From the NCBI GenBank assembly GCA_947487845.1, contig CANKYC010000002.1, forward strand, positions 1-34,718: a DNA stretch of 34,718 nt. The letters are read 5' to 3'. Below the pieces are notes generated by a model. That model searched no databases. It was given only the letters and a program-made list of their open reading frames with translations, and was not told the origin of the DNA. Origin of the DNA: Rickettsiales bacterium (GTDB lineage: Bacteria > Pseudomonadota > Alphaproteobacteria > Rickettsiales > UBA1997). Every line of letters starts with the position of its first letter. Within the stretch, counting starts at the first letter, position 1. Position numbers and translations under genes: made by a program. Positions 2,187 to 34,718 of this stretch are shown piece after piece.

Positions 2187-3347
2187 TCCCAACAAACTTG
2201 CGTAAACTTTTAAAGTCTCGTTACACATTTTTTCATTTGAAAAATTATCCGTCACATTTTTCCTAGCATCAATTCCGATTTTATCAGCTTCATCTTTTGG
2301 CATTTCTAAAACTTGATCAATCACTTTAGCAAAACCTTCCACATCACCAACTTCAACTAAGAATCCGGTTTTGCCGTCAATTATGGTTTCTAAAGCGCCA
2401 CCAATTTTAGTTGCGATAATAATCCGATTTGATGCCTGCGCCTCAATTGCAATGCGGCCGAAAGCCTCGGCGCGAACGCTTGGACAAACCGCTAAATGCG
2501 AAAGCGCATAAGCAGTTGGCATATCCTTACAAACGCCAACTATACGCACTTTTCCTTCCAATTTTTTATCAATAATTTTGCCTTCGAGCTTTTTTCTAAA
2601 TTGCTTGTGACCATGATCCGAACCAACCATCACGCATAAAAAATCAGATTTAACTTTGGTTAATGCCTCAATCAAGAATTCATGTCCTTTCCAGGCCGTA
2701 AAACGCGCTGGCATTAAAATGATTTTTTTATCATCTGGCAAATGCCATTTTTTACTCAAATCTATAATGCGGTTTTTTGAAACTTTTGCGTAATTAAAAT
2801 AGCCTAAATCTGCGCCGCGTTGAATTACCGTAGTTTTTGCCTCACGATATTCGCTATAATTTTGGGATAAATAATTTTTGATAAAATCAGAAACCGCAAT
2901 CACCGCATCAGCTTTTAACATGATAGAATTGTAAGCTCTTTTGGGAGGAAAAATTTTCCATTTCCAGAATTTTAATGAGTAAGTTCCATGAACCGTCGCG
3001 ACTAATTTTGTAGCGGTTTTTTTACAAGCGAAATAGCTGCTCCACATTGACGCTCTAGAGCGCACATGAATAATATCAACATTGTTTTCTTTAATCAGTT
3101 TGGCCAGTTTTTTATTATTAAAATAAATTGTGATCGGATTTTTGCTATGCACCGGCAACTCAATATGTTTGATGCCAGCTTCGCGTAATTGATAAACCAA
3201 AATTCCACCTTTCGAAACAACAATTGGTTCAAAATCAGCTTTTTTTAATGCTTTAGCAATATCAATAGTTCCGCGCTCAACTCCACCGCTTTCTAGGGCT
3301 GGCAGTATCTGCATTACTACCGTTTTTTTTCTTTCAGAATTTTCCAT
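2163..3347 (-). CDS. Glycosyltransferase family 4 (GT-B, RfaG/group-1 type).
   Basis: 394-aa ORF. The N-terminal ESGGVERGTIDIAKAL motif and the C-terminal SVRAEAFGRIAIEAQASNRIIIATKIGGALETIIDGKTGFLV (EX7E-type region) are typical of GT4 enzymes. Confidence 0.8.
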   Translation of the reverse strand: MENSERKKTVVMQILPALESGGVERGTIDIAKALKKADFEPIVVSKGGILVYQLREAGIKHIELPVHSKNPITIYFNNKKLAKLIKENNVDIIHVRSRASMWSSYFACKKTATKLVATVHGTYSLKFWKWKIFPPKRAYNSIMLKADAVIAVSDFIKNYLSQNYSEYREAKTTVIQRGADLGYFNYAKVSKNRIIDLSKKWHLPDDKKIILMPARFTAWKGHEFLIEALTKVKSDFLCVMVGSDHGHKQFRKKLEGKIIDKKLEGKVRIVGVCKDMPTAYALSHLAVCPSVRAEAFGRIAIEAQASNRIIIATKIGGALETIIDGKTGFLVEVGDVEGFAKVIDQVLEMPKDEADKIGIDARKNVTDNFSNEKMCNETLKVYASLLGYTKLTIS

Positions 3348-12415: not shown

Positions 12416-12488
12416 TTAATTTTCACTTTTTTTAATTTGTGTAATCCATGGACATCCTACAACCATAGCATGTAACTTGGTTTTTATT

Positions 12489-12640
12489 ATGGCGCTGTCG
12501 CGTAAATCAACTTTTTCGTCGAACTTTTCGCAATTCTAAATTTTTTGAAACGCACGTACATCTAAGGTACGTTTACCTTTCAAAAAATTTAGAATCACAA
12601 AAATTTCTTAGAAAAATTTGATTTACGCAACAGCGCCATT
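12489..12640. repeat. AT-rich imperfect palindrome, element B (about 152 bp).
   Basis: The left arm atggcgctgtcgcgtaaatcaa...ttctaaattttttgaaa pairs with the complement of the right arm ...tttcaaaaaatttagaa...ttgatttacgcaacagcgccat. The centre is acgtac-atctaag-gtacgt. Confidence 0.8.
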
Positions 12641-12674
12641 ATTTCTAGCCTCGTGTTAACTATCAATAGATTGC

Positions 12675-25672: not shown

Positions 25673-26566
25673 TTAATTCAATTTGAAGGCGCTAATTACA
25701 GTTTCTTTGGTTAATTGTGATTCTTGGCGATGAAAATTTTGCGAGCCGTAAAATCCAGAAACATAACCTTGAGCGTGAAGATGTAAAAAAGATTTTAACG
25801 CAATATTTTTTGCAAGAATTTTGGCGGCAATCATTTGCCCAATTCCGCCTTGCGCCACATGTTCTTCTAATACGCAAAGTTTTTTGTTTGATATTTCTTG
25901 CGCTAATTCTTGAGGAAAATCATCGAACAAAGGAAGTTCGCCAAGCACCCAAATTGTTGGGCGCGCGTCCGCTTCTTCGCTTTGAAAATCATAAAGCAAA
26001 TTGCTCGCAATCGAGCCAGTTACAATCAAAACTCCCAAATCGCCATCAAGAACTTTGCGCCATTTTGCGTAAGAAATTTCTGCTGTTTTTTGCGCCAAAC
26101 CCAGACGTAAAAAAGCTGGTTTATTTAAATCAGAAATTCGTGAAATCATCGCGCCAATATCAAAATCAAATGCCGGAATAAAAGCGTGCATATTTTGTAA
26201 GCACAAAAGCGAACCATAATCTTCAATCGCATGATGAGTTGCGCCCATAACGCCGTAGCCATAACCGCCACCATTTCCAATCAAAGTTACCGGTAAATTA
26301 TGCAGACAAATATCGTTGCGGATTTGTTCAAAAGGCCGCGCATAAATAAAAGGTGAAATGCTGTAACAAAAAACCGACAAACCAGTTTTAGCAATTCCAG
26401 CCGCTGTTGAAACCATGTTTTGTTCGGCAATTCCGGCATTTATAAAATGATCTTTCATAACTTCGCGCAGCGGTTCGAGCGCTTTAAAACCCAAATCTCC
26501 AGTTAAAAAAACAAAAGGTTTTTTGGCGAAAGCCTTAATCATTTCAGCGCAAAAAATTTCTCTCAT
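25673..26566 (-). CDS. Split transketolase, C-terminal (pyrimidine-binding) subunit.
   Basis: 297-aa ORF with INAGIAEQNMVSTAAGIAKTG and GATHHAIEDYGSLLCLQNM. The start overlaps the stop of the N-subunit gene (ATGA). Confidence 0.8.
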   Translation of the reverse strand: MREIFCAEMIKAFAKKPFVFLTGDLGFKALEPLREVMKDHFINAGIAEQNMVSTAAGIAKTGLSVFCYSISPFIYARPFEQIRNDICLHNLPVTLIGNGGGYGYGVMGATHHAIEDYGSLLCLQNMHAFIPAFDFDIGAMISRISDLNKPAFLRLGLAQKTAEISYAKWRKVLDGDLGVLIVTGSIASNLLYDFQSEEADARPTIWVLGELPLFDDFPQELAQEISNKKLCVLEEHVAQGGIGQMIAAKILAKNIALKSFLHLHAQGYVSGFYGSQNFHRQESQLTKETVISAFKLN

Positions 26567-27435
26567 AAATTTTCGATTTCCTTTTTTGCTTTGTTATAAA
26601 GTTCATCATTAAGCGGCAAATAATGCCATTGCATCTGGTTTTCCATAAATGAAATTCCGTGGCCTTTTATTGTTTTCATCAAAAAAATTTGCGGACGATT
26701 TGAAGCGCGAGAAAGTTTTTTTAAATCCGCTTCTTCATGACCATTAATTTCGGTAATTTCAAAACCCGTATTTCCCATTGAAATACGGGGTGGGGATCCC
26801 CGCAAAGCGGGGCGCGACTCGTGTCGCGTTTCCGTATCCCGAAGGGATAAAGGACTTTCAAAATTAAAAACGGCAAAAATTTCATGCAGTTTTTTTAAAT
26901 TTAACGAAGCAATTTCTTCAGTAGTTCCAAAACCTTGCAAGCCGTTGCAATCAATAATTACGGTGACATTTTTTAGCTGCTGATGATTTAAAAAAACCAA
27001 CGCTTCAAAATTACTGCCTTCTTGCCATTCGCCGTCGGACATTAAACAAAAAATTCGCCCTTCTTTTTTTTGTAATTTATTTCCTACAGACATCCCGCAA
27101 GCAAGCCCCAAGCCGTGCCCCAGACTTCCAGTGGCAAAAGGAATTTCCGCAATCCAGTTTGGTACCGGATGTCCGGCAAGTTTAGTTTGATCTTTATGAA
27201 AAGTTAAAAGTTGTTCATCAGAAATTTTTCCAACCGACCATAAAGCAATATAAAGCGCACCCGCAGCGTGACCTTTGGACAAAATAAAATGATCTTCTTT
27301 TTGCATGATATTGTGATGCAAATAAAGAATTGCATCAAGCGAAGAGAGGTTTCCGCCAATGTGACCAACTTTGGCTTCAAAATGCATTTTGAGCAATCGC
27401 AGGCGCGCTTGTTTTTGCAGCTCTGGGAATATCAT
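26563..27435 (-). CDS. Split transketolase, N-terminal (ThDP-binding) subunit, carrying an in-frame 33-codon repeat insertion.
   Basis: 290-aa ORF with LSKGHAAGALY, GSLGHGLGLACG and the ThDP motif SDGEWQEGSNFEAL...NGLQ. The segment SPLSLRDTETRHESRPALRGSPPRISMGNTGFE is encoded by a GC-rich cassette. Confidence 0.8.
   Translation of the reverse strand: MIFPELQKQARLRLLKMHFEAKVGHIGGNLSSLDAILYLHHNIMQKEDHFILSKGHAAGALYIALWSVGKISDEQLLTFHKDQTKLAGHPVPNWIAEIPFATGSLGHGLGLACGMSVGNKLQKKEGRIFCLMSDGEWQEGSNFEALVFLNHQQLKNVTVIIDCNGLQGFGTTEEIASLNLKKLHEIFAVFNFESPLSLRDTETRHESRPALRGSPPRISMGNTGFEITEINGHEEADLKKLSRASNRPQIFLMKTIKGHGISFMENQMQWHYLPLNDELYNKAKKEIENL
26765..26863. mobile_element. GC-rich multi-hairpin cassette (91-bp core plus one copy of an 8-bp direct repeat) inserted in frame in the transketolase N-subunit gene.
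   Basis: TTTCAAAA at 26757-26764 and 26856-26863 flanks the core. The core is 54/91 G+C by hand count. It contains four consecutive stem-loops: 26765-26789, 26798-26812, 26813-26828 and 26835-26849. Confidence 0.6.
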
Positions 27436-27614: not shown

Positions 27615-27690
27615 GGGGCTATAGCGCAGTTGGTAGCGCGCTTGCATGGCATGCAAGAGGTCACGAGTTCGACTCTCGTTAGCTCCACCA
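27615..27690 (+). tRNA. tRNA-Ala (anticodon GGC), CCA encoded.
   Basis: The 76-nt cloverleaf is GGGGCTA TA GCGC AGTTGGTA GCGC G CTTGC ATGGCAT GCAAG AGGTC ACGAG TTCGACT CTCGT TAGCTCC ACCA. It has the G3:U70 Ala identity pair, and the anticodon arm is identical to the E. coli tRNA-Ala(GGC) pattern. Confidence 0.95.
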
Positions 27691-27831
27691 GCCTTCGCTC
27701 TTATGAGCTTCGGCTGGCAGGCCAGCCCAACGGGCGGGACTGACGGACGGAGATCGTTAGAGCGAAGGCTGCCCGCCATAGCTCCCGAGGCAAAAACTCG
27801 GAGCTTATGTTCATCCAAAGCGACGGCGGGC
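27691..27831 (+). other. GC-rich, highly structured trailer directly abutting the tRNA-Ala 3' end; a candidate ncRNA or a relic of an inserted element.
   Basis: A perfect 10-bp long-range stem joins gccttcgctc (27691-27700) and gagcgaaggc (27760-27769), enclosing the hairpin ggctgg-cagg-ccagcc (27712-27727). A 7-bp stem joins gcccgcc (27771-27777) and ggcgggc (27825-27831), enclosing the imperfect hairpin 27778-27808. The composition contrasts sharply with the AT-rich flanks. Confidence 0.35.
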
Positions 27832-28027
27832 TTTACCAACAAACTTATACTAATTTCTTATCACCCTAAGAAAATGTATTACACCTACATCCTAAAATTG
27901 ATCCCCAATCCATACCAATCCCATATCAGCTATACCAAAGCCACTTAAACTCAAACAGTTTGTTTGCTATTTCAGTAACTTGAAAAAGATGGGATTATTT
28001 AAAAAAAATTTCATTTTATTTTAGCAT

Positions 28028-28246
28028 CGCAAAACCCCCCAACCCCCCTTAACAGGGGGGCTTTATCCGAGTTCGATCTCAAAAAGCCCCCTTAACAGAG
28101 AAGCTTTATCCGAGTTCGATCTCAAAAAGCCCCCTTAACAGAGAAGCTTTATCCGAGTTCGATCTCAAAAAGCCCCCTTAACAGAGAAGCTTTATCCGAG
28201 TTCGATCTCAAAGCCCCCCTGTTAAGGGGGGTTGGGGGGTTTTGCG
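28028..28246. repeat. Element with perfect 34-bp terminal inverted repeats enclosing four tandem 43-bp repeats.
   Basis: The left TIR is cgcaaaaccccccaaccccccttaacaggggggc (28028-28061), the exact reverse complement of 28213-28246. Tandem units start at 28044, 28087, 28130 and 28173. Units 2 and 3 are identical, unit 1 has 3 differences, and unit 4 is 2 nt shorter. Confidence 0.9.
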
Positions 28247-28354
28247 AATTTGAATTATTATGCCAAAGCAAAATGGTCGCGTTTCAAATAGCTTTGGTAT
28301 ATATCCACATTTAAATTTCACCCAACTCCAAATCGTAATCACCATTTTTAAAAA

Positions 28355-31821: not shown

Positions 31822-31897
31822 AAATTGTCTTGATCTAATTAAAATTTTGATAAATGTTCTCGTTTCGTTTTTTCCCAAATAAAAATCTTCACAAAAA

Positions 31898-34586: not shown

Positions 34587-34718
34587 ATTATTTTTATTCC
34601 AGATTTTGGCATATTTTGAGCGCTTTTTTGGTAAAATTTCGAAAAATATCTGGATATATTTTGAGAAATTTTACCAAAAAATAAGCCGAAATAGGACGAA
34701 ATATGGAATAAAAATAAT
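34587..34718. repeat. AT-rich palindromic element C (at least 132 bp; it reaches the window edge).
   Basis: The termini attatttttattcca (34587-) and tggaataaaaataat (-34718) are perfect inverted repeats. The inner arms ttttttggtaaaatttc and gagaaattttaccaaaaaa pair. The core ttttggtaaaa(a)ttt is shared with family A. It starts 3 nt after the trpC stop. Confidence 0.8.

Follow-up and report, generated by a model that had tools for sequence, protein, structure and literature searches.

A GC-rich palindromic insertion in a split transketolase gene, probably one copy of an RPE-like miniature element family of freshwater Rickettsiales-type bacteria

We analysed a 34,718-nt stretch of DNA from a Rickettsiales bacterium (GenBank assembly GCA_947487845.1, contig CANKYC010000002.1, positions 1–34,718; hereafter the window), in which the gene for the N-terminal, thiamine diphosphate (ThDP)-binding subunit of a split transketolase (TktN) is interrupted in frame by a GC-rich, multi-hairpin cassette. 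[quoted passage not shown] The insertion, its target-site duplication, an empty site, multiple copies, a target motif, read-through in multiple genes and constraint on the host gene were each observed directly. An original prediction, made from the window alone, had proposed a non-autonomous mobile element, possibly of a new family, and the copies, duplications and empty site described below bear this out.

The insertion, its empty site and its copies

The host protein finds its best PDB match in 6yak, the 'N-terminal component of the split chain transketolase' (9.7e-39), and its stop codon is overlapped by 4 nt by the start of the partner gene for the C-terminal subunit (TktC); as this TktN/TktC overlap is kept, the operon is intact. 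The original description of the insert held on re-examination: an octamer does stand at both 26757–26764 and 26856–26863; the 91-bp core between the two copies is 54/91 G+C (59%), against 36.3% for the whole window; and the core plus one octamer make 99 nt, or 33 codons, across which the open reading frame (ORF; 26563–27435, − strand) remains open, reading ...AVFNFE SPLSLRDTETRHESRPALRGSPPRISMGNTGFE ITEINGHEE... with the peptide split where it had been placed. The inserted residues are 194–226 or 192–224, the duplicated Phe-Glu making the placement ambiguous. The core is one of the two strongest GC islands of the window, with 27662–27808 equalling its peak of 0.70 (60 nt).

Alignment of orthologues likewise identifies the 33 residues as an insertion. 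Among 7561 homologues, the insert residues in a 290-aa protein were seen only in the window's own protein; the next four homologues (93–95% identity outside the gap) have 257 aa, exactly 33 fewer, as do nearly all the rest, and the alignment shows a clean 33-column gap at the insert. By DNA, the nearest 257-aa orthologue lies at a locus (L001) that shares 90–95% nucleotide identity with the window over 9 kb and presents the empty allele ...GTTTTTAA TTTTGAAA TTAC..., with the octamer once and the core absent, whereas the filled allele reads ...GTTTTTAA TTTTGAAA [91 nt] TTTTGAAA TTAC.... The two differ by exactly 99 nt, and such an empty/filled pair is what an insertion that duplicates 8 bp of its target leaves behind.

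The same site is filled in L002, L003, L012 and L070, which represent several samples and one metagenome-assembled genome (MAG). L002 and L003, aligned at the site, are one nucleotide off the window within the element, while L012, from the MAG 'Rickettsiales bacterium CE-Jul18-71', shares 99.3% identity with the window and has the same insertion. A second polymorphic site is filled in L024 (UBA2645; 3091–3197, duplication TTCTTATT), in an intergenic spacer upstream of a conserved gene, and empty in the window (~31862–31870). L001 (6789–9960) and L002 (4444–8218) also differ in gene content downstream of a conserved epimerase/glycosyltransferase gene; methyltransferase genes vary in number and size in this variable region, which is a probable surface-polysaccharide locus.

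Table 1. Coordinates of the element and its host genes in the window
Feature	Position	Strand	Evidence or remark
TktN gene (host): N-terminal (ThDP-binding) subunit of split transketolase, 290 aa	26563–27435	−	Pfam PF00456, 6.7e-18
TktC gene (partner): C-terminal (pyrimidine-binding) transketolase subunit	25673–26566	−	Pfam PF02779; downstream of host gene
MITE core, 91 nt, CCCGTAT...AAAGGAC	26765–26855	+	Orientation opposite to host gene
Left copy of 8-bp target-site duplication, TTTCAAAA	26757–26764	+	Octamer single in empty allele L001
Right copy of 8-bp target-site duplication, TTTCAAAA	26856–26863	+	Sequence comparison with empty allele and other copies
Terminal hairpin 1 (10-bp stem, 5-nt loop); left imperfect terminal inverted repeat	26765–26789	+	Fold, covariation
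Hairpin 2, CCCCGC-AAA-GCGGGG, 6-bp stem	26798–26812	+	Fold; no compensatory changes seen
Alternative palindrome GGGGATCCCC, overlapping hairpin 2	26792–26801	+	
Hairpin 3, CGCGAC-TCGT-GTCGCG, 6-bp stem	26813–26828	+	Fold
Hairpin 4, TATCCC-GAA-GGGATA (stem 26835–26849, 6 bp) with outer CC/GG pairs; right imperfect terminal inverted repeat	26832–26855	+	Fold

Further copies were sought first in a protein database with concatenated translations of the element, and element peptides were found in seven unrelated proteins (P0121–P0127) in four reading frames, including a host-attachment protein, a BioD-like protein and a histidine-kinase fragment. The DNA of these copies is 90–96% identical to the window copy, and each has its own 8-bp direct repeat. 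We then scanned for exact matches to the invariant right-half 24-mer GTGTCGCGTTTCCGTATCCCGAAG, which gave 28 matches on 27 stretches from eight MAGs when one genome per species of bacteria and archaea was searched, and 37 freshwater stretches in JGI metagenomes; UBA2645 has at least ten matches. No exact match of the 24-mer was present in IMG/VR, the element returned no BLASTn match in PLSDB (plasmids) or INPHARED (phages), and neither a repeat search nor BLASTn with 7-nt words revealed a second copy in the window.

A hidden Markov model built from the first copies made 87 hits across all loci, which reduce to 69 copies with distinct flanks at approximately 55 distinct sites; the numbers are lower bounds, given the 24-mer and peptide searches behind them. 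Exactly 91 nt are present in 59 of the 69 copies, and the duplication is perfect in 50 and carries one mismatch in 10, the remainder being truncated or decayed. The duplicated sequence varies from site to site and is host-derived. Compared with the family consensus of 53 copies (CCCGTATGTCCCATTGACATACGGGATGGGGATCCCCGCAAAGCGGGGCGCGACTCGTGTCGCGTTTCCGTATCCCGAAGGGATAAAGGAC), the window copy is identical at 88/91 positions (nhmmer, 102.6 bits). Over the 55 distinct sites, the target octamer is 97% A+T, preceded by A in 47 cases and followed by T in 45, and the target motif, A|AAAWTTWW|T, is symmetric and AT-rich.

Copies share genome-specific diagnostic variants, such as GGGGTTCCCC and GCAAGGCG in UBA2645, a pattern that points to amplification within lineages. 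Between genomes, copies are 90–97% identical versus 74–79% for syntenic host DNA, which implies that the family has been active recently, has passed between lineages or is strongly constrained at its source copies.

The eight MAGs are titled Rickettsiales (three), Alphaproteobacteria (one), 'Rickettsia typhi' (two) and 'uncultured Rhizobium' (two). The latter two labels are probably wrong, as the genomes compared are syntenic with the window at 74–79% identity (L025 of MsE-30apr19-74; L004/L027 of SRP285395_co1_350), and these MAGs appear to be environmental Rickettsiales. Copies in the 'Rickettsia typhi' records (ME-21oct19-9 and MsE-30apr19-74) lie in L017, L018, L020, L023, L025, L029, L033 and L036, and those in the 'uncultured Rhizobium sp.' records (SRP285395_co1_350 and _351) in L014, L016, L027 and L028.

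Read-through of the element and the fate of the transketolase

Because core and duplication together measure 99 nt, each insertion adds exactly 33 codons, and five of the core's six frames lack stop codons; an insertion in a gene therefore usually gives a read-through protein with an extra 33-residue peptide. The GC-rich hairpins encode flexible peptides rich in Pro, Gly, Arg and Ser. Approximately 10 of the 55 sites lie deep inside ORFs and are read through, while about a dozen are within a few codons of a predicted start and may represent insertions in 5′ untranslated regions through which gene callers have extended the ORF; a few are at stop codons, two seemingly truncate an ORF (L043 and L066) and the rest are intergenic.

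Besides TktN, at least seven genes with recognised domains are read through in frame, four different frames being used. The insert splits the Pfam match of a cyclopropane-fatty-acyl-phospholipid synthase in two, and it lies between the HisKA and HATPase domains of a histidine kinase; other hosts are a PBP5-type D-Ala-D-Ala carboxypeptidase, an intradiol-dioxygenase-like protein, BioD and a host-attachment protein. At L038 (2469–2658), a tandem dimer of the element with a shared middle duplication (AAAATAAT) is read in frame as a 66-residue insert in the ORF of a 767-aa multi-pass membrane protein with no Pfam match. It is attractive to regard the element as adapted to life inside genes, with a size tuned to 33 codons, five of six frames stop-free and flexible peptides; we hold this to be possible but rather doubtful. 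Of dinucleotide shuffles, 4.8% have five or more open frames, and the case for 3n size and open frames as adaptations draws on statistics made post hoc, in which the joint chance is roughly 1–2%.

For TktN itself, AlphaFold2 (116-sequence alignment) returned a confident model, with a mean predicted local distance difference test score (pLDDT) of 88.9 and a predicted template modelling score (pTM) of 0.86. The host fold scores around 95 and the blocks flanking the insert 93–98, while residues 194–209 and 211–220 fall below 50; the insert thus appears in the model as a loop of low confidence attached to a well-predicted domain, in favour of the surface loop that the original prediction had offered as one outcome. 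It is drawn as an unstructured excursion between helix 180–188 and strand 226–231, at the far end of a strand that leads into the invariant Gly232-His233.

The ratio of nonsynonymous to synonymous substitution rates (omega) of the host gene relative to the empty allele is 0.095. Comparing two filled alleles, those of the window and L002 (synonymous divergence 0.046), we counted seven synonymous and no nonsynonymous differences outside the insert; inside it, the single difference is nonsynonymous (Pro to Arg). The host gene has thus stayed under purifying selection since the insertion, with no sign of constraint on the insert itself. This favours a tolerated loop over a pseudogene, and the loop-bearing enzyme presumably works.

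If the insertion had instead inactivated the gene, the open frame would be a short-lived accident and the locus a young pseudogene. The 33 residues do precede the active-site region's invariant Gly-His by seven residues, and the family insertions in L043 and L066 seem to break their ORFs; however, the neutral chance of the seven-to-zero pattern is approximately 1.5e-5 (computed from site counts), neither the ORF nor the 4 nt that it shares with the partner subunit gene is disrupted, the filled allele recurs in several samples and one MAG (L002, L003, L012 and L070) and the predicted fold is undisturbed. We therefore find inactivation improbable; of the two outcomes offered in the original prediction, tolerance of the loop is favoured and loss of the enzyme disfavoured.

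Ends, fold and movement of the element

The four back-to-back stem-loops predicted for the core were reproduced by RNAfold, beyond shuffled controls. The minimum free energy is −47.8 kcal/mol (z = −4.0) for the + strand and −49.8 kcal/mol (z = −5.9) for the − strand, that of the mRNA, with 0/200 shuffles as stable in either case. On the mRNA strand, the flanking octamers pair with each other, as TTTTGAAA is nearly self-complementary, and close a four-hairpin junction. Half of the pairs of terminal hairpin 1 (5/10) show compensatory double changes across copies, for example from CCCG/CGGG to CACG/CGTG, CTCG/CGAG or CCCC/GGGG, and this covariation exceeds that of all 500 shuffles and all slid controls.

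Stem mismatches compatible with G-U pairing number 20 on the + strand versus 21 on the − strand, without strand bias; the stems seem to be constrained as DNA (or on both strands) and not as a one-strand RNA. The same counts give no hint of a strand-specific functional RNA. The core has no match in Rfam at the gathering threshold, group I and II introns and ribozymes included, and an E-value search of Rfam with the element gave matches at chance level only (E 0.22 and 0.88). When the left end is compared from its terminus inwards with the reverse-complemented right end, 16 of 26 positions agree, a score that 2/20000 shuffles reach; the terminal inverted repeats are probably real but imperfect, and both ends are related hairpins.

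Small non-coding size, dispersed copies and a fixed-length target-site duplication of host sequence are features of a MITE, and the element has all three. A symmetric target with a fixed-length duplication is the expected product of staggered cleavage by a transposase dimer, and 8-bp duplications are produced by several insertion sequence (IS) families. By inference, the element would be mobilised in trans by a transposase making 8-bp staggered cuts at A|AAAWTTWW|T, repair of the stagger would produce the 8-bp duplication, and the element may be active at present. In the window, the element landed in the TktN gene at the loop between helix 180–188 and the strand leading to G232-H233, where its peptide would be carried as a disordered surface loop, and the enzyme gene has stayed under purifying selection.

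An IS4-family IS at the partial copy in L013 was considered as a parent and ruled out, its perfect 17-bp terminal repeats (CCACACCCGTCGAAAGT) being unlike the MITE ends. In L013 (1–1497), this IS ends exactly where the MITE resumes, at approximately core position 46–47, indicating a nested insertion of the IS into a MITE copy. Complete copies of the IS are present in L075 (1011–2723) and L076. It encodes a 384-aa DDE transposase, accompanied in the L075 copy by a divergently oriented PRiA4_ORF3-like gene, and relatives are annotated in Ca. Tisiphia and a Rickettsia endosymbiont.

Several points weigh against a tolerated member of a MITE family. Every copy outside the window was found via the exact right-half 24-mer or near-identical peptides; this selection accounts in part for the invariance of the right half, which is therefore uninformative. 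No autonomous element with matching ends, the cognate IS of a MITE, was found in approximately 0.7 Mb of related sequence (the loci gathered), and the only transposase gene adjoining a copy is that of the IS4-family IS in L013, with its unrelated ends. The terminal inverted repeats are weak (16/26), with the outermost 2–4 nt mismatched. A 3n length (1/3 chance) and open frames are only modestly unusual, and the statistics are post hoc. The low pLDDT of the insert means that AlphaFold had no information on it and nothing more, and retention of the insert in mRNA and protein is predicted from the gene sequence. In addition, no solo MITE ends outside full copies were seen in the 0.7 Mb of loci.

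The missing cognate IS gives some room to a different class, that is, a repetitive extragenic palindromic (REP)/REPIN-type palindrome moved by a REP-associated tyrosine transposase (RAYT; an IS200-like Y1 transposase) instead of a staggered-cut MITE. Such elements would likewise be GC-rich with multiple short hairpins, and a terminal hairpin kept via compensatory changes is to be expected with hairpin-recognising enzymes. REP/RAYT and IS200/IS605 transposition, however, leave no target duplication, whereas 60/69 copies have a perfect or near-perfect 8-bp host duplication at a symmetric target, and copies inside genes are numerous. A non-exhaustive search of the loci showed no RAYT gene. We judge movement by a RAYT to be very improbable.

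It could also be argued that the element is removed after transcription or translation in the manner of an intron or intein, such that the enzyme never carries the 33 residues, and the octamers paired on the mRNA strand (−49.8 kcal/mol, z = −5.9) would indeed juxtapose the two junctions. Against this, Rfam holds no match, introns and ribozymes included; 33 aa are much too short for an intein, intein motifs are absent and the peptide matches no family; the unbiased stem mismatches (20 vs 21) argue against selection on a one-strand RNA; and genes called in many datasets run on through the element, in four frames, leaving such removal hardly credible. Lastly, a lineage-specific expansion of the transketolase loop by local duplication or slippage, with nothing mobile involved, would fit the single copy within the 34.7-kb window and the habit of some lineages of expanding enzyme surface loops, but the many copies and their site-specific duplications refute it, the same 91 nt (90–97% identity) standing at approximately 55 other unrelated sites with 8-bp duplications of their own, the empty allele differing by exactly core plus duplication, and the insert being 59% G+C in a 36% G+C genome.

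Relation to known and neighbouring repeats, and significance

To our knowledge, in-frame palindromic elements have so far been found essentially in Rickettsia, apart from a report in Wolbachia, and RPE-1 to about RPE-10 were reportedly described by Ogata et al. in 2000 and 2002. RPEs are described as short selfish repeats of palindromic sequence (~100–150 nt) that insert between genes, into RNAs and into coding sequences, leaving ORFs undisrupted (PMC4316617; PMC1779305; PMC10969869). The MITE described here resembles them as a short palindromic selfish repeat of Rickettsiales found between and inside genes, which keeps the frame, adds a peptide at fold-compatible positions, has no known transposase and forms subfamilies amplified within individual lineages. 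The comparison, already drawn in the original prediction, is apt because the hosts are Rickettsiales MAGs; however, these are freshwater environmental MAGs and not the genus Rickettsia, and the element is GC-rich and 91 nt long (99 nt with the duplication), compared with 100–150 nt for RPEs. Set against the published descriptions, it also seems to stand out for its sharp boundaries, clean 8-bp duplication, fixed 3n size and symmetric target.

No Rickettsia species genome carries the 24-mer (one genome per species searched). NCBIfam, which presumably holds the TIGRFAM RPE1–RPE5 domain models, returned no match at E up to 10 for the peptides of the five stop-free frames or for four host proteins, and thus homology to the described RPE domains was not detected. 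Membership of a described RPE class is not supported, on a comparison made at the protein level. The word 'palindromic' is absent from two papers on environmental Rickettsiales MAGs, one of which mentions UBA2645.

Among other systems, the mISOt elements of Orientia are Rickettsiales MITE families, unrelated to the present element, that have cognate ISs (PMC2575882). With these and the Correia elements of Neisseria, the element shares small size, a non-coding, multi-copy nature, terminal inverted repeats (imperfect here), a target-site duplication, presence/absence polymorphism between strains and nesting with other repeats. It differs from both in having no cognate IS that shares its ends (0.7 Mb), in its weak terminal repeats (16/26) and in being read through in genes at ~10/55 sites, MITE families being mostly intergenic. 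The mobile GC clusters of yeast mitochondria are likewise GC-rich palindromic cassettes in an AT-rich genome, with AT-rich targets and sometimes within coding sequence, but they belong to another domain of life and are unrelated in sequence. REP/REPIN elements share short GC-rich hairpins, high numbers and non-autonomy; they are extragenic and without target duplication, whereas the present element duplicates 8 bp and enters genes.

The window contains further repeats. A tRNA-Ala(GGC) gene (27615–27690) is followed by a GC-rich structured stretch of ~140 nt (27689–27830; −75.6 kcal/mol, z = −6.0), comprising an inverted repeat with 40-nt arms (27689–27771) and a second stem; it has no Rfam family match and a partial 86% match in L037, and could be another GC-rich element or a tRNA integration scar. 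At 28012–28262, a 43-nt unit is repeated in tandem ~4.5 times (28041–28255) and enclosed by 53-nt inverted arms rich in C/G runs. Related arrays in L002, L060, L044 and L048 mark it as a further family of repeated elements. Three AT-rich foldback elements of ~130–165 nt, with inverted arms of 58–65 nt, are located at 2025–2186, 12486–12642 and 34587–34718, and copies elsewhere, mostly 93–99% identical, were found in L023, L047, L073, L051, L066, L039, L052, L007 and others; the GC-rich family is thus accompanied in these genomes by several other palindromic families of MITE-like type. In L073 (816–1060), a foldback copy of the family of 12486–12642 is split at 912/1004 by a GC-rich MITE (913–1003, duplication AAAAATTT).

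The family extends in-frame palindromic insertion beyond the genus Rickettsia to environmental freshwater Rickettsiales. Sharp boundaries, a fixed 8-bp duplication, a symmetric target and filled/empty pairs make the mechanism and the search for a transposase tractable. The family is also a natural test of protein tolerance, with one 33-residue cassette carried in four frames by a transketolase, BioD, a histidine kinase, a cyclopropane-fatty-acid synthase, a PBP5-type carboxypeptidase and others. For annotation, the element lengthens predicted proteins and makes spurious N-terminal extensions, such that masking it would improve gene calls in these MAGs. Were the element indeed adapted to life inside genes, 'protein-coding palindromes' would be an old strategy across Rickettsiales, possibly including free-living lineages, and no quirk of the genus Rickettsia, and the clean 8-bp duplication and symmetric target would offer a first handle on how RPE-type elements move.

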